Below, in pieces: positions 1 through 29,736 of a stretch of DNA of 64,000 nt. Below the pieces are notes generated by a model. That model was not told the DNA's origin. It saw only the letters and a program-made list of their open reading frames with translations, and did not search any database. The translations under genes and the position numbers were made by a program. Source of the stretch: an uncultured Nitrospiraceae bacterium (GTDB lineage: Bacteria; Nitrospirota; UBA9217); contig CAYUSP010000003.1 of assembly GCA_964447405.1 (NCBI GenBank), forward strand, positions 691,723 through 755,722. Reading direction: 5' to 3'. Positions within the stretch are counted from its first letter, which is position 1. Each line of letters begins with the position of its first letter.

Positions 1-251
1 TCCGGCGACGATCGTTTTCCGTAAAAGACCGCTTCCTTCATGGAAGGATTGTAATAGGCGTTCGTGATGTCGTCGGACAGCTTCGCAAGCAGTGATCTCG
101 CCAGGTCGGTCCGGTCCCTCTTCAGTTCCGCCTGCTCCACATTCCTGCCCGCAGTCGAGAAACTCGTATAGATCACTGTGACAATGATGGCGAGGATCGC
201 AGTCGCCAGCAGTACTTCGAGCAACGTAAATCCCTTGAAACCGAGAGGCAT
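1..251 (-). CDS. gspJ: Type II secretion minor pseudopilin GspJ-like; N-terminal part only, C-terminus beyond the window edge
   Basis: Minus-strand translation from the ATG at 251..249 gives MPLGFKGFTLLEVLLATAILAIIVTVIYTSF.... This is a prepilin leader with a G|FTLLE methylation motif and a hydrophobic helix. It is the last gene of the gspC-I operon order. Confidence 0.65.
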   Translation of the reverse strand, partial: MPLGFKGFTLLEVLLATAILAIIVTVIYTSFSTAGRNVEQAELKRDRTDLARSLLAKLSDDITNAYYNPSMKEAVFYGKRSSP

Positions 252-301
252 GAAGCGTAAGGGGAAATCAGAGCACCTACAGGATTGATTACTGTTCTCC
301 A

Positions 302-336
302 CCCCTGGCCCCTGGCCCCTGACCCCTGACCCTTTG
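302..336 (-). repeat. G-tract tandem repeat (revcomp GGGTCAGGGGTCAGGGGCCAGGGGCCAGGGG) about 50 nt upstream of the gspJ start codon; G-quadruplex potential on the coding strand
   Basis: Plus strand reads cacccctggcccctggcccctgacccctgaccc. That gives five runs of G3-4 on the minus (coding) strand. Confidence 0.6.
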
Positions 337-684
337 CTACTCATACCCCACCAGCTCTACCATTTCCTGCCGGTCCCCCTCTTTCCAGAGAACAGCAATG
401 CGCACCTCCATGATCTGGGTAAGGGGAGTGGGTGAAATCACCTTCTTCCATAGATACTCTTTGAACTCCACTTCGGGGAACTCCCCCTCATCCTCCGCAG
501 GAAGGCGCGGCCGCTTTACGATCGTGTCCGTCATCACCCGCTTCGCAAGAAGCGTGGCCGTGGTGATCCGCTCTGCTGCCAGGACGTTCTGCATGCTCCT
601 GTTTTTGAGCCCCAGCAGTGAGACCAGTACAAACGCCATGATCGAAACGGCCATCATCACTTCGAGAAGGGTGAAACCTTTCAT
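337..684 (-). CDS. gspI: Type II secretion pseudopilin GspI
   Basis: MKGFTLLEVMMAVSIMAFVLVSLLGL... is a prepilin N-terminus. The size of 115 aa and the position between gspH and gspJ fit. The ORF is open further upstream through the G-repeat, and the internal MKG start is preferred. Confidence 0.7.
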   Translation of the reverse strand: MKGFTLLEVMMAVSIMAFVLVSLLGLKNRSMQNVLAAERITTATLLAKRVMTDTIVKRPRLPAEDEGEFPEVEFKEYLWKKVISPTPLTQIMEVRIAVLWKEGDRQEMVELVGYE

Positions 685-727
685 TCCTTGAGGGAAGGAT
701 TGAAATCCGGCCCGGAGACTCGGTTCT

Positions 728-765
728 CCCCATGCCCCATGACCCCTGCCCCATGACCCTTGATC
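728..765 (-). repeat. G-tract tandem repeat (revcomp GGGTCATGGGGCAGGGGTCATGGGGCAT) about 50 nt upstream of the gspI start
   Basis: Plus strand reads atgccccatgacccctgccccatgaccc, giving four G3-4 runs on the coding strand. Confidence 0.6.
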
Positions 766-767
766 CA

Positions 768-1304
768 TCATCGCTCCTCTATCCGTCCTTCGCGGAGCTC
801 CGTATCCCCTGTCAGCGGCCTCACGATCAGGGTGAAAATCTTTTCATCCGCGTCCTTCAGGTAAATAAAGGTCTTCTCCACCCAGCCGTCCGGTGTGAAC
901 TGGATATAATGTTCATCGGAGTGGCTGCCCGCCCGCACATCGCTGAAAGCGGTCTGGCCGGAAAGGATTCCTTCGCTCCCCATCTCGGAGTGATATTTTC
1001 TGAACTCCACAGCCTGCTCTCCAGCCAGGCTGAGAACCTCGGCCCAATAGTGTCCGTTGGGAATATCGAACCTTAGGCGGAACACCGCTTTTTTTGCCTG
1101 TGCCTCGTCCCGCAGAAACCGTATGGTGCCAGTCAAGTGGCGCGCGCTCTGCTTGAGGTTTGCTTCTCCCATGTCCCCGAGGCGGGAGATCACGAGCGAA
1201 AGCATCACTCCCAATACGACAATAACAACCGCAAGTTCTACGAGTGTGAATCCGCGGGGGCTGTTCCGTAACCCGTGATCCCTGACCCCTGACCCTTGAC
1301 CCAT
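768..1304 (-). CDS. gspH: Type II secretion pseudopilin GspH
   Basis: It has a prepilin motif ...RGFTLVELAVVIVVLGVMLSL. It is 178 aa with ATG at 1304. The unusually long 18-aa leader (MGQGSGVRDHGLRNSPRG) is encoded by the G-repeat. Confidence 0.65.
   Translation of the reverse strand: MGQGSGVRDHGLRNSPRGFTLVELAVVIVVLGVMLSLVISRLGDMGEANLKQSARHLTGTIRFLRDEAQAKKAVFRLRFDIPNGHYWAEVLSLAGEQAVEFRKYHSEMGSEGILSGQTAFSDVRAGSHSDEHYIQFTPDGWVEKTFIYLKDADEKIFTLIVRPLTGDTELREGRIEER
1279..1303 (-). repeat. G-tract tandem repeat (revcomp GGGTCAAGGGTCAGGGGTCAGGG, a canonical G3N4G3N3G4N3G3 G4 motif) at the 5' end of gspH
   Basis: Plus strand reads ccctgacccctgacccttgaccc, immediately 3' of the ATG at 1304 on the coding strand. 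Confidence 0.6.
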
Positions 1305-1310
1305 GGCAAG

Positions 1311-1751
1311 CTACTCTATCTTCCAGCTCTGGATATCGGCATTCTTGCCCTCGCCGCCCGGCTCGTTGTCAGCGCCGTAGGAGATGATTTCATATTCTCT
1401 GCCTTCGCTTCCCGGCGATAGATACACGTAGTCCTTGTCCCACGGGTCCTTGGGAATGCGCGCCGGCTTCAGATAGCCGCCCTCGCGCCACTTCGGCGGG
1501 ACGCGGCCTGTTTCCGGCTTCCTGATCAGGGCGTCAAACCCCTGCTCCGTGGAAGGATACGATCCATTGTCGAGTTTGTAAGCATCCAACGCGCTTTCCA
1601 GCGACCGGATCTGCACTTTTGCCGTCCCGATCTTCGCCTTTTCCTCCTGCCCCAGAATGCGGGGAAGGACCAGTCCCGCAAGCAGACCGAGGATAATGAT
1701 CACCACCATGATCTCGATGAGGGTGAAACCCTTTTGATTTCTTGTCTTCAT
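1311..1751 (-). CDS. gspG: Type II secretion major pseudopilin GspG
   Basis: MKTRNQKGFTLIEIMVVIIILGLLAGLVLPRILGQEEKAKIGTAKVQIRSLESALDAYKLDNGSYP...DPWDKDYVY...YGADNEPGGEG is a highly conserved GspG signature. There is an RBS ggagac before the ATG at 1751. Confidence 0.9.
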   Translation of the reverse strand: MKTRNQKGFTLIEIMVVIIILGLLAGLVLPRILGQEEKAKIGTAKVQIRSLESALDAYKLDNGSYPSTEQGFDALIRKPETGRVPPKWREGGYLKPARIPKDPWDKDYVYLSPGSEGREYEIISYGADNEPGGEGKNADIQSWKIE

Positions 1752-1803
1752 ACCGAGTCTCCTTTTACCACCTGACAATATCCGGTTTTCCTTGCCCCCT
1801 GAC

Positions 1804-1832
1804 CCTTGCTCCTTGACCCTGATTTCCAAACC
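1804..1832 (-). repeat. G-tract repeat (revcomp CAGGGTCAAGGAGCAAGGGTCAGGGGGCAAG) in the gspF-gspG intergenic region, about 50-80 nt upstream of gspG
   Basis: Plus strand reads cttgccccctgacccttgctccttgaccctg. Confidence 0.55.
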
Positions 1833-1841
1833 CTGCCGTTA

Positions 1842-3062
1842 TCATCTCAGCCCCGAGCTCATCTCAAGCATAGGCAGCATGATGGCGATGACAATGAAAC
1901 CGATGATCAGGCCCATCACCAGGATGATCACCGGTTCCAGGAGCGCCAGAAACCCGGTGATGCGCGTCTCCACGGTGCGGTCGAACGAATCCGAGATCTT
2001 GAGTAGCATTTTTTCGAGTTCACCGCTCTTCTCGCCCACGGCAACCATCTGCACGACCACGGGCGGGAACAGGCCGCTCCTGCGCAGCGGGTCCGCGATG
2101 GGCTCGCCTTCACGTACGTTGTCGCGGGCCTTCTGGACCGCATTCGCCAGCACGGTATTCCCCACTACATTTCTGACAATATCAAGGGCAGTCAGCGTAG
2201 GAACTCCGCTCTGGAGCAGCGTGCCCAGTGTCCGCGTGAACCGGGATACCGTGATCATGCGGATAAGCCCGCCGAACACGGGAATACGCAGCAGCCAGGC
2301 GTCAACGGCCTCTCTTCCCGCTTGCGTGCCGATATATCTCCGGAAATAGAATATCCCCAGGCCAAGCGCCAGCAGGATCGCCCACCAGTAAGAGGAGAGC
2401 AGCCGCACGATCCCAAGCAGCATGAGCGTCACGAACGGAAGCTGCTGTTTCGTGTTCTCGAACATGCCCACGACGCGCGGCATTACAAAGCTGAACACGA
2501 AGAACAGCATGCCTGCGCCGATGATCGTCATGAACGCGGGATAGGCAAGGGCCGCTGTGATCCTGCCGCGGAACCGCACCTGCTCGTCCAGAAAATCCGC
2601 CAACCGGTCAAGGGTTATCTCAAGAGTCCCGCTCGCTTCACCAGCCGAGACCATGTTGACATAGAGCGGCGAAAAGACCTGCGGATTATCCTTGAGTGCA
2701 TCCGCAAGCGATGCGCCTTCGCGTACCCTGTCGCGCACCGCGGAGAGCGCGGCCTTCAGGGCCTCGGTCTCCTCCTGGTCCACCAGCACGGTCAGAGCAT
2801 CCATCAGGGGGAGCCCCGATGACAACAGTGTCGCAAGCTGCCGCGTGGAGGTGGCCAGGTCGCCGAGACGCACCTTTCGCCTGAACACGGTGGTTGATGC
2901 CCCCCTGCGGGCAGCCTGGGCAGCGTCCCCTTCGCGGATCTCAAGAACGATGATGCCGTCTTTCTTGAGCTTCGTCCGGACGGTCTTGAGGCTTTCCCCG
3001 TCCTGGGCACCGGATATCTTCTTTCCCTGGCTGGTAACGCCTTTGTATTCGTAGACCGGCAT
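1842..3062 (-). CDS. gspF: Type II secretion inner-membrane platform protein GspF
   Basis: 406 aa with two GspF repeats, multi-pass membrane topology, and the typical ...LGTLLQSGVPLL... motifs. Confidence 0.9.
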   Translation of the reverse strand: MPVYEYKGVTSQGKKISGAQDGESLKTVRTKLKKDGIIVLEIREGDAAQAARRGASTTVFRRKVRLGDLATSTRQLATLLSSGLPLMDALTVLVDQEETEALKAALSAVRDRVREGASLADALKDNPQVFSPLYVNMVSAGEASGTLEITLDRLADFLDEQVRFRGRITAALAYPAFMTIIGAGMLFFVFSFVMPRVVGMFENTKQQLPFVTLMLLGIVRLLSSYWWAILLALGLGIFYFRRYIGTQAGREAVDAWLLRIPVFGGLIRMITVSRFTRTLGTLLQSGVPTLTALDIVRNVVGNTVLANAVQKARDNVREGEPIADPLRRSGLFPPVVVQMVAVGEKSGELEKMLLKISDSFDRTVETRITGFLALLEPVIILVMGLIIGFIVIAIMLPMLEMSSGLR

Positions 3063-3162
3063 GGTTTTAATTCAGTTGGGGGTCGCGAGTTCGTAGTTCG
3101 GAGATAAAGACCGAAACTGCGATTCTCACTTCCATCTCCGAACTCCAAACTCCGAACTTACC

Positions 3163-4848
3163 TCACGTTTCCTTCTGCGTCACCCTCACTACTTCGTCAA
3201 CTGACGTGATGCCGGCGAGGATCTTTTCTGCGCCGTCCTGGCGGAGCGAACGCATGCCTTTTTCCATAGCCAGGGCCTTGATCATGGAAGCATCCGAGTT
3301 CTTCATAATCATCTGGCGCATCTCGTCATCCACCGTCAGGAGCTCATAGATCGCGCTCCTGCCAAAATAGCCGGTGTGGAAGCAGGCTTCGCACCCTTTT
3401 GCCCGATACACGGTGATGCCCGCGGCTCCTGTCCTGATCTCGAGTTCCGCGATCTCGCCGGCGGTCATCTGGTATGGCTCACGGCACTCTTTGCACAGCA
3501 CGCGCACGAGCCTCTGCGCAAGGATCCCCATAACCGACGAGGAAATAAGAAACGGTTCGATCTTCATATCAATCAACCGGGTCACCGCACCGGCGGAATC
3601 ATTCGTATGCAGCGTGGAGAACACCAGGTGTCCGGTGAGCGCGGCCTGGATCGCAATCTCAGCGGTCTCGGAGTCCCGGATCTCGCCCACAAGGATCACG
3701 TCCGGATCCTGACGCAAAACCGAACGGAGCCCCGCGGCAAAGGTGAGATGGATCTTGGCGTTCACCTGGATCTGCCCGATGCCCTTGAGCTGGTACTCGA
3801 CCGGGTCTTCGATGGTGATGATGTTCTTGTCCGGAGAGTTGATCTTCGAGAGCGCCGCGTACAGCGTGGTAGTCTTGCCGCTGCCAGTCGGGCCGGTAAC
3901 GAGAACAATGCCGTGGGGTCGCTCGATCATCGCATTGAACCTGGTAAGGGTATCCCCGGTGAATCCGATCTGATCGAGAGGCAGCAGGGCGCTTTCGCGG
4001 TACAGGAGGCGGAGCACGAGCCGCTCGCCGAACGCGGTGGGAACAATCGAGACACGGATGTCCACATCCTTGCCACCGATCTTGATGCGCATGCCGCCGT
4101 CCTGCGGCAGCCGCCGTTCTGCGATGTTCAGATCGGCCATGATCTTGACGCGCGAAGCGATGCTGGCCTGAAACCGCTTCTGGATCGTGAGAATGTTGTA
4201 CAGGATGCCGTCTATGCGGAACCGCGCGATCATCTCTTTTTCGAAGGGCTCGATGTGAATGTCGCTCGCGCGCTCGCGGATGGCCTGGGACAGGAGCGAA
4301 TTCACCAGCCTGATGATCGGAGCGTCGTCGGTGGCCTCCAGCAGGTCCGCGGGCTCATCGAGCTCCACCGCGAGAAAGGACAGGTCATCCTCCTCCATTT
4401 CCTGGACCGTATCCTCGGCGCGGTTCATGTCCTCGCTGTGAAGGCGGTTGATGGTGTCCAGGATCAGTTCGGACGGGGCAAGCACCAGCGATATATCGGC
4501 GTTGAAAAGGGCCCGGAGATCATCAAGCGTGGCGAGGACAAGCGGTTCGGATGTGGCGGCAACGACCGAGCCGTTCTCCCTGCGGAGCGGGACGGCGATC
4601 GCTTTTTTTGCGTAGGTGATGGGAACCTTGAGGGCCAGCTCGCGGTCGATTTCCCCGAGCTCGCCCTGGAACGGAAGGCGGAGCTGGGCGCCGAGCGCCT
4701 TCAGCACATCGGCCTCCGTCACAAAGTTTAACCGGACCAGCAGCGTACCGATCCGTCCGCCGCGCTTTTTCTGGAGTTCGAGCGCCTTTTTCAGCCGCTC
4801 CGGCGAAAGCCCGGACTCAACAAGTATCTCGCCGAGCAGGCGTCTCAC
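3163..4848 (-). CDS. gspE: Type II secretion ATPase GspE
   Basis: 561 aa with an N-terminal T2SSE_N/MshEN domain, Walker A GPTGSGKTTT, Asp/His boxes, and a tetracysteine CKEC...CEAC zinc motif. Confidence 0.9.
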   Translation of the reverse strand: MRRLLGEILVESGLSPERLKKALELQKKRGGRIGTLLVRLNFVTEADVLKALGAQLRLPFQGELGEIDRELALKVPITYAKKAIAVPLRRENGSVVAATSEPLVLATLDDLRALFNADISLVLAPSELILDTINRLHSEDMNRAEDTVQEMEEDDLSFLAVELDEPADLLEATDDAPIIRLVNSLLSQAIRERASDIHIEPFEKEMIARFRIDGILYNILTIQKRFQASIASRVKIMADLNIAERRLPQDGGMRIKIGGKDVDIRVSIVPTAFGERLVLRLLYRESALLPLDQIGFTGDTLTRFNAMIERPHGIVLVTGPTGSGKTTTLYAALSKINSPDKNIITIEDPVEYQLKGIGQIQVNAKIHLTFAAGLRSVLRQDPDVILVGEIRDSETAEIAIQAALTGHLVFSTLHTNDSAGAVTRLIDMKIEPFLISSSVMGILAQRLVRVLCKECREPYQMTAGEIAELEIRTGAAGITVYRAKGCEACFHTGYFGRSAIYELLTVDDEMRQMIMKNSDASMIKALAMEKGMRSLRQDGAEKILAGITSVDEVVRVTQKET

Positions 4849-6710
4849 CGGGCGCCCTCGGCGGGTCGGCTCGACTCAGGAGTGACCGTCGTCGCGGCGG
4901 GTGCTGACTGCTGTTGGCCAGCAGCCGGCTCCTGCCCAGCCCCTGACTGTTCGCCGGTTGTAGGTTTTTTCTCGTGCGCGCCCGGGAGGCCCCGGTCCTT
5001 TTTGTCAATACGGTATTCCTTGCGGAACTCATCCAGGGATTCGTTCTTGTGCCTCGTAAGTTCGCCGGCCTCGGCGTCTCCCTTGATCACGTAGGGCGTA
5101 ATGAAAATCATGAGGTTCGTCTTCTCGATCTTGGTCGTCTTGTATTTAAAGAACCATCCCAGGATCGGGATATCGCCCAGCAGCGGCACCTTCACGGTTG
5201 ACGCTGTCGCATTGTCCCTGATCAGCCCGCCGATCACCATGGTTTCCTTGTCTTTCACTACGACGGTGGTGCTTGCCGAACGCTTGCTCGTACTCGGGCC
5301 CACCAGGTTCGGATTCAATCCGGCAGTCGCGATCACGTTGGATATCTCAAGGTTCAGCTCGAGCTTGACGTTGTCCTCCGAGGTGATCTGCGGCGTCAGT
5401 TCCATGGTCAGGCCGACGTCCTTTCGATCGATGGCGGTCAGGATGGAGCCGGCCGTTGCCGGAGTCTGGGTTTGACTGCCGATGAACGGCACATTCTCGC
5501 CGACCATGATCTTGGCCTTTTGATTGTCCGTGGTAAGGATGTTCGGCGTGGACAGCACATTCACGTCGCCGTCAGTCTGCACCGCGCGAAGGAGCGCGCC
5601 GATGTTCATGTACTCCACACCTTTAAAAGAGAAGGTACCCTTGACCGCTCCCACGGCCAGGCCATTGAAGCCCGCGAATGCGGCAGGTCCGCTGACCGTC
5701 GCGTTGGCGATGCCGCCGAAGTTCGTCCCGCCCACGGCATTCGTGCTGCTGTCGCTCAGTTGATTGACAGCGCGGAACTCGAATCCGAGTTCCCGCTGCT
5801 TTGCCAGACCCATCTCGATGATCGCTGCTTCGACATAGACCTGGCGGCGGCGAATATCAAGTTTCTGGATCACGTCCTTCATGATCTCGAAATCGCCTGG
5901 CGATGCGACAATAATCAGCGAGTTCGTTGTCTTGTCCGCAGTGATGGTGACCGCGCCTTCGAGGATCGTGGACGGTCCCGCGGGCTGCGCCGCTCCTCCC
6001 GCCGGCGGCACCGGCAGCCTGGAGACAAGCGCCTGCATCAGTTTAGCGATGTCCTCGGCGTTTGCGTTCCTCAAATAGTAGACGTTAATCTTGCCTTTCC
6101 CTTCGGGCGCCGCCACGTCCATGGCATGGATCAGGCTTTCGATCTTCCTGATGTTATGCACGGAGTCGGTAATGATGACGGAGTTCGTGGTGGGATAGGC
6201 GATCAGCGTGCCGTCTTTGGTAACGAGGGGGGAAATCGTTCGCACGATCTCCTGCGGATTGACGAAACTCATGCGGATGAGCTTGGTTACGTACCCCTCC
6301 CCGTTCATGCTGCCATCCTGCATCACCTTGAGCCCGCTCTGCCTGGCCGAGGCCGCGGGAATGATGCGGATCACCGCTCCGTCCTCAATGGCTGTAAACC
6401 CCTTGATTTCGAGCGCCGAAAGGAACACCTGGTATGCCTCGTCGGGTGAGATCTTCGTCGGCGTCATGAGCGTGATCTTGCCCACCACGCGTTCATCCAG
6501 GATGAAGTTCCTGCGCGTAAGCTCGCTCATCACTTTGATGAGGGCGTTGATGTCGATGTTGGTGAAGTTCAGGGTGATGTAATCCTCGCCGGATCTTGCC
6601 TTCTGAAGATCGGCCTGATCGGGCGGGGCAACGGGCTTCTTCTCTTCAGCGTTAGCCGCGGATATGCCCATGAGCCCCATGAGAAGCAGCAGGGCCGCTG
6701 TTCTTTTCAC
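4845..6710 (-). CDS. gspD: Type II secretion secretin GspD
   Basis: 621 aa with a signal peptide, N0-N3 secretin N-domains, and a C-terminal secretin domain (...VPLLGDIPILGWFFK...). There is an ATGA overlap with gspE. Confidence 0.9.
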   Translation of the reverse strand: MKRTAALLLLMGLMGISAANAEEKKPVAPPDQADLQKARSGEDYITLNFTNIDINALIKVMSELTRRNFILDERVVGKITLMTPTKISPDEAYQVFLSALEIKGFTAIEDGAVIRIIPAASARQSGLKVMQDGSMNGEGYVTKLIRMSFVNPQEIVRTISPLVTKDGTLIAYPTTNSVIITDSVHNIRKIESLIHAMDVAAPEGKGKINVYYLRNANAEDIAKLMQALVSRLPVPPAGGAAQPAGPSTILEGAVTITADKTTNSLIIVASPGDFEIMKDVIQKLDIRRRQVYVEAAIIEMGLAKQRELGFEFRAVNQLSDSSTNAVGGTNFGGIANATVSGPAAFAGFNGLAVGAVKGTFSFKGVEYMNIGALLRAVQTDGDVNVLSTPNILTTDNQKAKIMVGENVPFIGSQTQTPATAGSILTAIDRKDVGLTMELTPQITSEDNVKLELNLEISNVIATAGLNPNLVGPSTSKRSASTTVVVKDKETMVIGGLIRDNATASTVKVPLLGDIPILGWFFKYKTTKIEKTNLMIFITPYVIKGDAEAGELTRHKNESLDEFRKEYRIDKKDRGLPGAHEKKPTTGEQSGAGQEPAAGQQQSAPAATTVTPESSRPAEGAR

Positions 6711-6835
6711 TCGTCGCCTCCGTGATTTGAATTGTACAGGAAAATACGAACCGGAGAATCGGGGAATGGGGGCCTCGGAAAGGTTCTCGGGCCAATATTC
6801 CGTAGCTCCCGTTCCCCGGTTCCCCGGTTTATGTG

Positions 6836-7660
6836 TTAGCGTATCTCGTAGTTCAGCGTCTGGCGCTGACCGCCGCGGATGAGGTCAATGGAGATGTACC
6901 GCTCGTTCCTGAGTCCCTGGTAAAGCTGGAAGAACTTGGAGGGATCGTCAACATCCTGCGAATTGACCCGCTGGATCACATCATTGTTCTGGATCCCGAT
7001 CTTCTCATAGATGCTGCCCGGCACGATCTCGCTGATCTTGAACCCCACGGTCTTTCCCTGCTCCATATGGGGCAGCGCACGCGCCTGCGTCAGTATCTGG
7101 CTCATGTTTTCCGTGCTCGCGATCATTTCTTTCTGGTCCACCATCCATTTGCCATCGGAGAGCTTTTTTACACCGTTTACGCCCGGCTTTGGGATGGAGA
7201 CGATCTTGGTGTCGTCGATGATCTGGATGTCGACGGTCCCGCCATCCGCTTTCTGGAGCGTGACCTTGTCGCGGATAACCTTTATGATCTGCGAACCATC
7301 AGGCAGCTTCTGGCGCGTCCGGTAAAAAGCCTGGCCCGTGCTGTCCTCAAGCACTGCGCCGGAAAAATTCGCGCCCTCCACCGTCCCGATGAGCTTGTAG
7401 GTGGTGGCTTCGATTGCTGTCGCTCCCCCGGAAGGCCCTTTTCCATCACCGAAGATCCCGCGTTCAAGGATGGAGGAATAATCGGAGAGCTCGCGCTTCG
7501 GCTCGATCGCTGGCCGTTCACGGTCCAAGGGAGCCGCGTACTTCGGAGCAGCATCAAGGCTCCTGCCGATCATCGCATCCACCGTATCAGCAAGAAAATA
7601 AGCTGAAAACGTGAGAAGAGCAATGAGAACAAGCGTATACAGTGTTTTTTCTTCTTTCAC
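6836..7660 (-). CDS. gspC: Type II secretion protein GspC (PDZ domain)
   Basis: 274 aa with an N-terminal TM anchor, an HR/pilotin-binding-like region, and a C-terminal PDZ domain (...GFKISEIVPGSIYEKIGIQNNDVIQRVNSQDV...). It is the first gene of the operon. Confidence 0.7.
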   Translation of the reverse strand: MKEEKTLYTLVLIALLTFSAYFLADTVDAMIGRSLDAAPKYAAPLDRERPAIEPKRELSDYSSILERGIFGDGKGPSGGATAIEATTYKLIGTVEGANFSGAVLEDSTGQAFYRTRQKLPDGSQIIKVIRDKVTLQKADGGTVDIQIIDDTKIVSIPKPGVNGVKKLSDGKWMVDQKEMIASTENMSQILTQARALPHMEQGKTVGFKISEIVPGSIYEKIGIQNNDVIQRVNSQDVDDPSKFFQLYQGLRNERYISIDLIRGGQRQTLNYEIR

Positions 7661-20807: not shown

Positions 20808-20912
20808 AACGGACAGAAGTAAGAAGACAGACTGAACCAATATACCGCACGCTTGTATACCTTGTCTATTGTCTGACTTCTCTCTTCTGTCCTCTGTCTT
20901 CTGTCCTCTGTC
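20808..20912. repeat. Cargo-less CAGAAG/CAGAGG-type inverted-repeat element between LemA and the M48 protease
   Basis: The left arm is ggacagaagtaagaagacagac. The right arm is gtctgacttctctcttctgtcctctgtcttctgtcctctgtcttctgacc, with internal tandem tgtcctctgtcttc repeated twice. It is related to the arms flanking the four-helix-bundle gene at 29.3 kb. Confidence 0.5.
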
Positions 20913-20926
20913 TTCTGACCCTCACC

Positions 20927-25433: not shown

Positions 25434-25570
25434 AATATTGGGTCATGTAGCATGGGTCAAGCAGCAAGGATCCAAGAGCGGGCGGTAACGATCTTGTTTG
25501 ATGGTTCTCCCCATGCTACTTGCTACAGTGCTTTTGCTACTTGACCCTCTTCGACGAAGGAGAAGAACAC

Positions 25571-28665: not shown

Positions 28666-29313
28666 TTGCCATCACAAATAACTCATGCTATAACGCTCGT
28701 CATGTCAACCTCTCCCTCCTTAGAAGAACAGATAACGATGGCGGGCCTCACATACGGACGCCGCCACGACATCGCATACCGCTCCGGCATGGTGCTCCAG
28801 GTATGCGGTGCTGCCTTGCTCGCTGTGCTGTATCCGCTCGACAGCCCGTTCTATACCATAGGCATCATGCTGTTCGAAGCCGGCGTACTGCTTTCTGCAA
28901 TCTATCTTCTCGTTTGGATGCGCCCGGTCAAGAAGATAATAGTCGGGTCGGTGATCGCAGGGCTCGTTCTTCAAGTAGTCGGTGCCTTCGCGGCCCCGGA
29001 ACAATATGCGGGTCTGGTTCTGCTCTCAGGAATCGGGCTCGTCTGCGCTGGAGCGGCTGGGATGGTCGGCAATGAGGCGTTTTGCTTTGGATACCGTGAA
29101 GGCTGGGTGCTTATGCTGGCTGGATTTCCCGTGATGGTCCTGGCAAATCTGCTGCTCAGAGAGAACCGCATTTTCAATTCGCTGGGTTTCTCCGTTATTT
29201 TTTTACTGCTGCTTTCACTTACAGGCAAGAAGCTAAGGCAGAAATTGCTTTCTTTACCCTCTACAAGCGTTTGCGGGGTGTCGGAGAGGACAGAAGTAAG
29301 AAGTAAGAAGTAA
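28666..29313 (+). CDS. Hypothetical polytopic membrane protein
   Basis: 4-5 predicted TM helices. The start is uncertain (alternatives 28702 or 28738). No family is confidently recognised. Confidence 0.45.
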   Translation: MPSQITHAITLVMSTSPSLEEQITMAGLTYGRRHDIAYRSGMVLQVCGAALLAVLYPLDSPFYTIGIMLFEAGVLLSAIYLLVWMRPVKKIIVGSVIAGLVLQVVGAFAAPEQYAGLVLLSGIGLVCAGAAGMVGNEAFCFGYREGWVLMLAGFPVMVLANLLLRENRIFNSLGFSVIFLLLLSLTGKKLRQKLLSLPSTSVCGVSERTEVRSKK

Positions 29314-29736
29314 GAGAACTACCAAATATAATTCGTCCAACATGAAAAAACATAACTTCAGAAATCTAAAAATCTACCAACGAGCCATAGCATTCGCTGT
29401 GGATATTTACCAGATCAGCAGGAGTTTTCCGCAGGATGAAATTTATGGGCTGACAAGTCAGATACGACGGGCCGCAACTTCAATCCCCCTTAATATTGCC
29501 GAAGGCAGTGGCAGCACATCAGGAAAAGAGTTTAGGCGATTTCTTGAAATTGCTTTACGTTCTGATTATGAGGTATTGGCCTGTCTGGAAATATCATTAC
29601 GATTGAATTACTGCAATCATGCGGTTTTTGAAAAACTGACTCAGGAAGCAAACGAAATAGCATCCATGATAGCTGGATTCTCAAAAAGCCTATAATCTTA
29701 CTTCTTACGTCTTATCTCCTTTTTCTTTCTTCTGTC
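29286..29736. mobile_element. Inverted-repeat-bounded element carrying a four-helix-bundle gene
   Basis: The left arm is gaggacagaagtaagaagtaagaagtaagag (29286-29316). The right arm is cttacttcttacgtcttatctcctttttctttcttctgtc (29697-29736), which ends at the stop codon of the sigma54 response-regulator gene. gtaagaagtaag/cttacttcttac is an exact reverse complement. Confidence 0.6.
29342..29695 (+). CDS. Four-helix-bundle protein (the so-called 23S rRNA intervening-sequence protein family)
   Basis: 117 aa. MKKHNFRNLKIYQRAIAFAVDIYQISRSFPQDEIYGLTSQIRRAATSIPLNIAEGSG... is the hallmark of this family. Confidence 0.85.
   Translation: MKKHNFRNLKIYQRAIAFAVDIYQISRSFPQDEIYGLTSQIRRAATSIPLNIAEGSGSTSGKEFRRFLEIALRSDYEVLACLEISLRLNYCNHAVFEKLTQEANEIASMIAGFSKSL

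Follow-up and report, generated by a model that had tools for sequence, protein, structure and literature searches.

G-rich heptameric simple sequence repeats (SSRs) have been described in Xanthomonas (unit GGGAATC) and Nostoc (unit GGGGA(C/T)T), with a preference for four units that was linked to G-quadruplex (G4) formation and with depletion of the G-rich strand from coding sequence (Rehm et al. 2015, PMC4692102). Short tandem arrays of TAACTGA direct repeats have been found beside start codons (MacGregor 2015, PMC4679880), and Rickettsia palindromic elements (RPEs) and other MITEs (transposable elements of the miniature inverted-repeat type) form in-frame insertions in genes that are translated at tolerant positions (reviewed in PMC10969869). 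Here we describe four G-rich heptamer arrays at the junctions leading into the pseudopilin genes gspG, gspH, gspI and gspJ of a type II secretion (T2SS) operon from an uncultured Nitrospiraceae bacterium, encoded on a 64,000 nucleotide stretch (contig CAYUSP010000003.1, 691,723–755,722; hereafter the window). The G-rich heptameric SSRs of Rehm et al. are the closest described system. The arrays probably belong to a class of heptamer SSRs that lies just 3′ of stop codons and that, at this locus, has come to lie inside the cleaved leaders of the minor pseudopilins.

Analysis of the window with Tandem Repeats Finder (TRF) revealed four period-7 arrays with the minus-strand unit GGGGTCA and approximately 4.6 units each (Table 1). 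Near-matches to GGGTCAGGGG with no more than one mismatch numbered 18 against 5.1 expected, a count reached by none of 100 shuffles, and 12 of the 18 were on the minus strand between 302 and 1805. The arrays started 4–21 nt past the stop codons of gspF, gspG, gspH and gspI and, in gspH, gspI and gspJ, were positioned 2–18 nt downstream of the start codons. The array at the gspG/gspH junction (G/H; the other junctions are abbreviated likewise) began at the G of the gspH ATG and encoded MGQGSGVRDHG, the I/J array corresponded to codons 5–14 of the gspJ open reading frame (ORF) and the H/I array was inside the gspI ORF from either of its two tandem start codons, whereas the F/G array was truly intergenic, in the gspF/gspG spacer. 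The repeats that an earlier note on this DNA had pointed out were therefore real and non-random at all four sites, and the coordinates placed three of them at the 5′-end of gspH, gspI or gspJ and the fourth ahead of gspG; they were in frame with the first three genes and also with a TTG-extended gspG. That no such patch precedes gspC, gspD, gspE or gspF held for the G-rich unit but not for repeats in general, as AGTTCGG repeats were found before gspF and octamers before gspD. A search with the covariance models of Rfam 15 gave no family match at any of the arrays. Binding of CsrA/RsmA, which recognises GGA motifs, was considered and rejected from the sequence, as AAGGA cores were present only in the gspG-proximal array and the others contained GGG.

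The window and 40 second-order Markov shuffles of it were compared using TRF. Eight arrays of period 7 with at least three units were found in the 64 kb, against 0.15 expected, and other periods were at background. All eight were at gene junctions. Five of them were in the T2SS operon, which makes up 12% of the sequence, and three of the sites outside it were inverted pairs. Inverted arms resembling those of repetitive palindromic (REP) elements or MITEs were absent at the four G-rich arrays and present at gspE/gspF, at gspC/gspD and in relatives. The AGTTCGG unit at gspE/gspF recurred before gspK on a metagenome contig (L001) that matched the window sequence (100% over 3824 nt).

The pattern GGGTCARGGGTCAGGGGYCAGGG (23 nt) was then scanned in one genome per species. 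GGGGTCA arrays were found in at least 120 stretches from about a dozen phyla, and 139 arrays were listed. Hosts among the matches listed were Chloroflexota, Planctomycetota, Acidobacteriota, Verrucomicrobiota, Gemmatimonadota, Latescibacterota and Desulfobacterota, together with Cyanobacteria, Actinomycetota (Micromonospora, Streptomyces), Xanthomonas and one Nitrospirota metagenome-assembled genome (MAG). In the 240 nt downstream of each of the 139 listed arrays, no prepilin cleavage motif was found. Where the upstream ORF was co-oriented with the G-rich strand, the listed arrays started at a median of 2.5–5.5 nt past the stop codon, and the geometry in the window was alike. In the Nitrospirota MAG (MFD01872.bin.2.231; L102, approximately 2540–2650), 4.3 units of GGGGTCA were located between an ftsQ-like gene and ftsA, and the inverted partner of this array, CCATGCCATGCCCCATGACCC, was the complement of the GGGTCATGGGGCATGG variant that precedes gspI in the window. 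A Desulfatirhabdium butyrativorans MAG (L074, 300–2400, minus strand) encoded three GGGGTCA-type arrays in frame within a single uninterrupted ORF (more than 750 aa) resembling a glycogen-debranching enzyme; a C-rich inverted partner (for example, CCCCGAA x4) came after each array, and the arrays add segments such as GFGVRGQGSGVSRPEPRTPNPEP. The earlier note had regarded the motif as specific to the pseudopilin gene class. This was contradicted by its presence in at least 120 stretches elsewhere, by the lack of a prepilin gene behind any of the 139 listed arrays and by the Nitrospirota array at ftsQ/ftsA, and occurrence of the motif without a tie to pseudopilins, which the note itself had named as telling against its proposal, is in spirit what the cross-genome scan found. 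With moderate confidence, we regard the four patches as the local version of a widespread bacterial heptamer repeat and not as a pseudopilin-specific G4 switch.

Orthologous junctions were collected from eight related T2SS loci, identified via GspH homologues, and 80 more from metagenomes, which gave 181 distinct G/H, H/I and I/J junctions (L002–L214). A period-7 array was present in 106 of the 181 (59%), and the set contained 139 period-7 and 31 period-14 arrays versus about 21 of all other periods. The usual units in the relatives were ATTGCGG, AATGCGG, ATTTCGG and their complements, with the array and an inverted partner often arranged around a short spacer. G-rich units accounted for 25 of the 139 period-7 arrays and a canonical G4 motif was found in 31 of the 181 junctions (17%). 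Pairs of units differing by one mismatch or fewer made up 51% of comparisons within an operon versus 34% between genomes. Copy number had its mode at 4.0–4.9 units in G-rich arrays (15 of 25) and in those of mixed composition (68 of 106). Whatever the unit sequence, the junction arrays showed a sharp size mode at 4.0–4.7 units (approximately 32 nt); no mixed-composition array reached five units (0 of 106), whereas arrays outside coding sequence, both in these loci and in the window, extended to 5.4–6.6 units. As the four-unit mode was equally present in units that are not G-rich, G4 formation does not explain it in the 181-junction set. The preference for four units, much cited as a G4 requirement, was just as sharp for units unable to form a G4, which suggests a property of how the arrays arise or are constrained.

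The G4 prediction that the earlier note had proposed as a check was run, and it supported three of the four arrays. A canonical search (G3+N1-7, four tracts) of the minus strand of the whole 64 kb returned only three motifs, which were the G/H, H/I and I/J arrays. G4Hunter (window 25) gave values of 2.44 for H/I and 2.2 for I/J, the top two in the 64 kb; G/H and F/G both scored 1.6, which did not exceed about a dozen other sites. When G4s were allowed in RNAfold, the minimum free energy structure included a G4 in the G/H, H/I and I/J junction RNAs. The F/G array, with just three close G3+ tracts, failed both the canonical search and RNAfold. These predictions bear on the proposal that the GGGTCAGGGG arrays are a dedicated pseudopilin leader motif with a G4, in DNA or RNA, as the functional feature. 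Consistent with it, the only canonical minus-strand G4s of the window and its top G4Hunter scores were in these arrays, about 4.6 units provide 4–5 G-tracts, and two thirds of the GGGTCAGGGG near-matches cluster in the pseudopilin region. The proposal is nonetheless very improbable. Its motif occurs elsewhere without a pseudopilin tie, both in the 139 listed arrays and at the Nitrospirota ftsQ/ftsA junction, which largely refutes it; moreover, the array before gspG is not a canonical G4 and a size of about 4.5 units is common to units that are not G-rich. The G4 as a conserved functional feature likewise failed against the orthologous junctions, few of which were G4-capable and most of whose heptamers were not G-rich.

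Leaders of type IV pilin-like proteins are typically 6–26 aa long, cytoplasmic and cut after a conserved Gly by the prepilin peptidase (PMC4471445). All four pseudopilins in the window contained the core of such a class III signal peptide, with Gly(-1) followed by F-T-L-x-E5 and a hydrophobic helix. For gspH, the single in-frame ATG, GTG or TTG ahead of the G↓FTLVE site was the ATG listed in Table 1. Between the upstream stop codon and Gly(-1), the pseudopilin frame was free of stops in 169 of the 181 junctions, whereas the other two frames were stop-free in 89 and 77 (49% and 43%; Fisher p 1e-30). L010 was excluded from these frame statistics because its many split genes suggested a frameshift-rich assembly. 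A coupled, overlapping ATG shared the frame of the cleavage site in 40 of 42 gspI and 46 of 53 gspJ junctions, and junction lengths for these two genes took 20–25 distinct values between 16 nt and 218 nt (in-frame p approximately 1e-15 to 1e-17). The start offset of gspJ, -7 from the end of the stop, was kept in 53 of 59 relatives. The shortest possible leader exceeded 12 aa in 123 of the 181 junctions. By contrast, reading in the gspG frame from the gspF stop to the G↓F site ran into a stop codon in each of the eight F/G junctions checked. In the window, gspG had a separate Shine-Dalgarno sequence and a short leader of the canonical kind, with no array in its coding start.

The leaders of 117 GspH homologues measured 5–61 aa, with modes at 17–18 aa and 32–33 aa, and 41 of them were longer than 26 aa. 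These leaders read as translations of the arrays (GVRGQGS from GGGGTCA, FGVRSSE from AGTTCGG), and the inverted partners translate as TPHSALR or IRNPQSA. In the window, conceptual translation of the arrays gave GQGSGVR, SWGRGHGAWGEPSLR and GSGVRGQGPGVENSNQSCR within the leaders. The GspG and GspH leaders (8 aa and 18 aa) were within the 6–26 aa range; from the coupled starts, those of GspI (31–32 aa) and GspJ (38 aa) were above it, with proximal ATGs giving 3 aa and 7 aa. The heptamer units seen here contained no stop codons on the sense strand. At the level of predicted reading frames, these data show that selection keeps the pseudopilin frame open across the arrays, and the arrays are most likely translated in gspH, gspI and gspJ. 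The GQGSG-rich leaders, which the earlier note had put down to the ORF tracker, are, given the frame conservation and the only start codon of gspH, most likely real. GspH, GspI and GspJ of this lineage appear to have repeat-encoded, hypervariable leaders of 17–60 aa. No specific report of pseudopilin leaders of such unusual length was found in a literature search.

Two related loci carried a different repeat in the gspI or gspH leader (L008, 6534–6699; L010, 5829–6115), translating as PSPQPSPRGGEG or SPLPRGERIKVRG, which suggests that other repeat families also insert in the leader. Separately, the starts of gspH or gspI were called inconsistently in L005 (6728), L008 (6720) and L132–L134, the miscalled start being either an internal Met past the cleavage site or a GTG inside the leader. 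Because gene callers are inconsistent in this way, database entries of these minor pseudopilins are often N-terminally truncated, and the repeat-encoded leaders of GspH, GspI and GspJ represent an annotation correction.

The position of the arrays in 5′ coding regions, with a unit length that is not a multiple of three, fits a contingency locus in which a one-unit slip would change the frame and so turn GspH, GspI or GspJ on or off. Phase variation through a heptanucleotide repeat is reportedly known from neuO, which would provide a precedent. At this locus such switching, and the replication slippage raised in the earlier note, is extremely improbable: with 4.6 units and a match of 80–92%, the arrays are short, imperfect and without a long near-perfect tract, nearly all junctions are in frame, the GspH leader length has sharp modes, and four contigs with this GspH were identical. 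No out-of-frame allele was found among the junctions and GspH homologues. Three seemingly truncated GspH homologues, examined as candidate OFF alleles, were not frameshifts and were rejected; P0008 resulted from a GTG picked by the caller, P0041 from a scaffold N-gap and P0079 from a missed upstream ATG.

Folding of the junction RNAs separated the window from its relatives. The four window arrays, which had no inverted partner, gave fold z-scores of approximately 0 to +2.3 without G4s, and the window junctions reached approximately -50 kcal/mol only when G4s were allowed. Junction RNAs of those relatives that have inverted pairs were far more stable than shuffles (z -3 to -4.4). Per nucleotide, G4-type junctions had energies of approximately -0.44 to -0.49 kcal/mol and hairpin-type junctions -0.27 to -0.46 kcal/mol, the G4 energies of ViennaRNA being rough. 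An inverted copy beside the array, as is usual in the relatives, would enable the RNA to form a long hairpin; since the window arrays are G-rich and solitary, the alternative fold there would be a G-quadruplex.

In an alternative reading, the array is a selected structural module, a stable RNA fold just past a coupled start codon that throttles re-initiation and keeps GspH, GspI and GspJ scarce relative to GspG. It may additionally shield upstream gspG mRNA against 3′ decay, and the leader would be the place where such a structure can be encoded. In favour of this are the location of the arrays immediately behind the start codons of gspH, gspI and gspJ, the stability of the hairpins in relatives and the similar energy per nucleotide of the window G4 folds, the retention of an array in 59% of junctions despite turnover of the unit, and the independent Shine-Dalgarno sequence and array-free coding start of gspG, which encodes the abundant subunit. 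Work cited in Rehm et al. (PMC4692102) reports repression of translation in E. coli by G4s close to ribosome-binding sites. However, in 41% of the junctions a period-7 array was not detectable, unstructured junctions with z near 0 were seen in several relatives (L002, L011 and the I/J junction of L009), which makes the element dispensable, and the same arrays occurred at unrelated genes (ftsQ/ftsA) and within the Desulfatirhabdium enzyme gene, all of which speaks against a required function; the energies assigned to G4s are also approximate. On balance we regard a selected module as rather unlikely. If pseudopilin stoichiometry is tuned here, as the earlier note had proposed, we infer that this would operate via any stable RNA structure and not via a G4 in particular. 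An extension of this idea, which we hold to be a doubtful speculation, is that in this Nitrospirota clade the leader is a coding landing pad for interchangeable RNA modules (G4 or hairpin), selected to set the ratio of GspG to GspH, GspI and GspJ. Were it true, the repeat would be at once translated, structural in the mRNA and swappable for another fold with the same effect.

The heptad sequence could also offer multivalent binding to a protein that recognises RNA or DNA (S1, Csp or CsrA-like), with about 4.5 units as its footprint. Protein binding was proposed for TAACTGA repeats by start codons (MacGregor 2015, PMC4679880), and both the sharp upper size near 4.7 units, seen in the junctions for any unit sequence, and the greater similarity of units within an operon than between loci would be expected of such a site. 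Yet many units coexist in one genome, so that many binding specificities would be needed, or none, and the size limit in leaders may stem from constraints on frame and length, given the larger non-coding arrays. We regard this explanation as improbable.

The reading that we favour, of a heptamer SSR class that gathers 3′ of stops, would account for the arrays as follows. Heptamer arrays of a known class gather directly 3′ of stop codons between co-oriented genes, and in this lineage, probably Nitrospirota, they occupy most T2SS junctions (E/F, F/G, G/H, H/I, I/J and J/K), the unit sequence turning over from genome to genome. The starts of gspH, gspI and gspJ overlap or abut the upstream stop, a geometry suggestive of translational coupling; because the next gene starts at the upstream stop codon, an array placed there falls within its reading frame. 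The leader would remain cytoplasmic and be removed by the prepilin peptidase past the conserved Gly, and the arrays are presumably tolerated there because the segment that they encode is discarded by this enzyme. A stable RNA fold just past the coupled start (a G4 here, a hairpin in relatives) could decrease minor pseudopilin translation compared with that of GspG. Several observations weigh against this reading. The same junctions have kept arrays in many genomes although the unit has turned over, and G4-type and hairpin-type junctions are similar in energy density, both of which hint at selection for structure. Within the 64 kb, the GGGGTCA unit was found only in the T2SS operon, plus a related TGGGTCA-AGCAGCA array at 25439, and the operon is array-enriched (five of the eight); tolerance alone leaves the mostly empty intergenic spacers elsewhere unexplained. 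Translation of the arrays is deduced from frame conservation, and in the window gspI and gspJ retain proximal ATGs that would yield the leaders MKG and MPLGFKG, so that shorter products may be made beside those with long leaders.

What is new here is the occurrence of heptamer arrays inside probably translated, hypervariable prepilin leaders, together with the data on the four-unit rule. The 181 junctions are a natural test bed in which different array types at one position, G4s and hairpins, could be compared for any effect on subunit stoichiometry. Even without a function, the locus is a clear example of repeat DNA persisting in coding sequence because the encoded part is discarded.

The T2SS operon occupies 1–7660 of the window on the minus strand (Table 1). 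GspH homologues at approximately 62% identity carried the label Nitrospirota, and locus L003 pointed to this phylum as well. The L001 contig goes on past gspJ with gspK, gspL, a PDDEXK_3 gene and gspM. A PDDEXK_3 (PF13366) gene was found between gspL and gspM in three of the eight related operons; in L001 it had the inverted flanks ACCACGGATGAACACGG and CCGTGTTCATCCGTGGT, and in L008 period-10 repeats were present on either side. At the gspC/gspD hairpin, two miRNA precursor models matched both strands below threshold and were rejected as chance matches to a hairpin.

Table 1. Genes, start codons, cleavage sites and repeat arrays of the T2SS operon in the window, and PDDEXK_3 genes of related operons (↓, predicted cleavage point)
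Feature	Position	Strand	Details
gspC	7660-6836	minus	
gspC/gspD junction	6747..6831	minus	inverted octamer arrays CGGGGAAC / CCCCGATT; TRF
gspD	6710-4845	minus	
gspE	4848-3163	minus	
gspE/gspF element	3086..3158	minus	AGTTCGG x3.3 array 3134-3158 and inverted partner ATCTCCGAACTACGAACTCG 3086-3105; TRF
gspF	3062-1842	minus	
F/G array	1790..1820	minus	degenerate, AGGGTCA AGGAGCA AGGGTCA GGGGGCA AGG; TRF 1790-1820, period 14, 2.2 units
gspG	1751-1311	minus	
gspG start ATG	1751-1749	minus	own Shine-Dalgarno AAAGGAG
GspG Gly(-1) codon	1728..1730	minus	MKTRNQKG↓FTLIEIMVV; prepilin motif
gspH	1304-768	minus	
gspH start codon	1302..1304	minus	ATG, 6 nt past gspG stop TAG (1313-1311)
G/H array	1272..1302	minus	GGGTCAA GGGTCAG GGGTCAG GGATCAC GGG; TRF 1271-1302, 4.6 units, 84% match; G4 search
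GspH Gly(-1) codon	1251..1253	minus	RG↓FTLVELAVV; prepilin motif; PF07963
gspI	771-337	minus	
Shine-Dalgarno GAGGAG ahead of gspI starts	779-774	minus	inside gspH 3′-end
gspI tandem starts	766..771	minus	ATGATG (771-769, 768-766), overlap gspH stop TGA (770-768)
H/I array	728..759	minus	GGGTCAT GGGGCAG GGGTCAT GGGGCAT GGGG; 5 G-tracts; TRF 728-759, 4.6 units, 80% match
GspI Gly(-1) codon	676..678	minus	KG↓FTLLEVMMA; prepilin motif; PF07963
gspJ	from 344	minus	start of gene only in window
gspJ start codon	342..344	minus	ATG, overlaps gspI stop (ATGAGTAG)
I/J array	302..332	minus	GGGTCA GGGGTCA GGGGCCA GGGGCCA GGGG; 5 G-tracts; TRF 301-332, 4.6 units, 92% match
GspJ Gly(-1) codon	231..233	minus	KG↓FTLLEVLLA; prepilin motif search
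PDDEXK_3 insert	L001 6350-6822		
PDDEXK_3 insert	L007 10122-10598		
PDDEXK_3 insert	L008 10004-10655		

Outside the operon, inverted heptamer pairs with a spacer of approximately 40 nt were found between LemA and an M48 peptidase gene (20810–20917) and between an FTCD_C gene and folD (25439–25548). The unit of the latter pair, TGGGTCA/AGCAGCA, is close to that upstream of gspG. A 23S_rRNA_IVP gene (PF05635, E 1e-37; 117 aa) at 29342–29695 had inverted heptamer arrays on both sides (29292–29733), with AGAAGTA x3.4 upstream and TCTTACT x5.4 downstream, and resembles a small cassette with repeat-built inverted ends.

Repetitive intercistronic palindromes (REP/BIME elements) are present in enterobacterial operons, where they can alter the relative expression of neighbouring cistrons; these elements are not translated, and RAYT transposases bind their conserved palindromic consensus. 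The arrays described here are likewise repeat elements between genes of one operon, whereas the four G-rich window arrays are not palindromic, and neither a RAYT-type enzyme nor a REP consensus was seen at this locus. Heptanucleotide STRR arrays, cited by Rehm et al., are reportedly present in the cyanobacterium Calothrix PCC7601. Like these and the TAACTGA repeats, the present arrays involve several heptamer units per genome, short intergenic arrays near starts or stops and a patchy phylogeny; they differ in phylum and unit, and both earlier families were reported from non-coding DNA. Stop codons are present in TAACTGA but absent from the units here, which would be read through. RPEs are a further parallel, as the hairpin-type leader array pairs of the relatives and the three in-frame Desulfatirhabdium copies behave likewise. 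However, RPEs are approximately 150 bp long, palindromic and have conserved peptides, whereas the arms here are heptamer tandem repeats of approximately 32 nt and the G-rich arrays of the window are without an inverted partner.

As class III signal peptides (PMC4471445), the leaders are conventional where they end in Gly followed by F-T-L-x-E and a hydrophobic helix, with PF07963 matching GspH and GspI; they depart from the described type in that those of 41 of the 117 GspH homologues and, from the coupled starts, those of GspI and GspJ are longer than 26 aa, repeat-derived and hypervariable. With the SSR class of Rehm et al. (PMC4692102), the arrays share a head-to-tail 7-nt unit with a G-tract of 3–4 nucleotides, the four-unit preference, a position past stop codons and variation between relatives, and three of the four contain at least four G-tracts. 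The unit here is GGGGTCA and, within the 64 kb, is confined to one operon, whereas the Rehm class is seen genome-wide. That class is also mostly non-coding, in contrast to the gspH, gspI and gspJ arrays inside open frames, and its G4s were shown biophysically (circular dichroism, K+ dependence), those here being predicted in silico. The preference for four units is common to both systems; its presence here in units that are not G-rich weakens the explanation by G4 formation that Rehm et al. gave for it.

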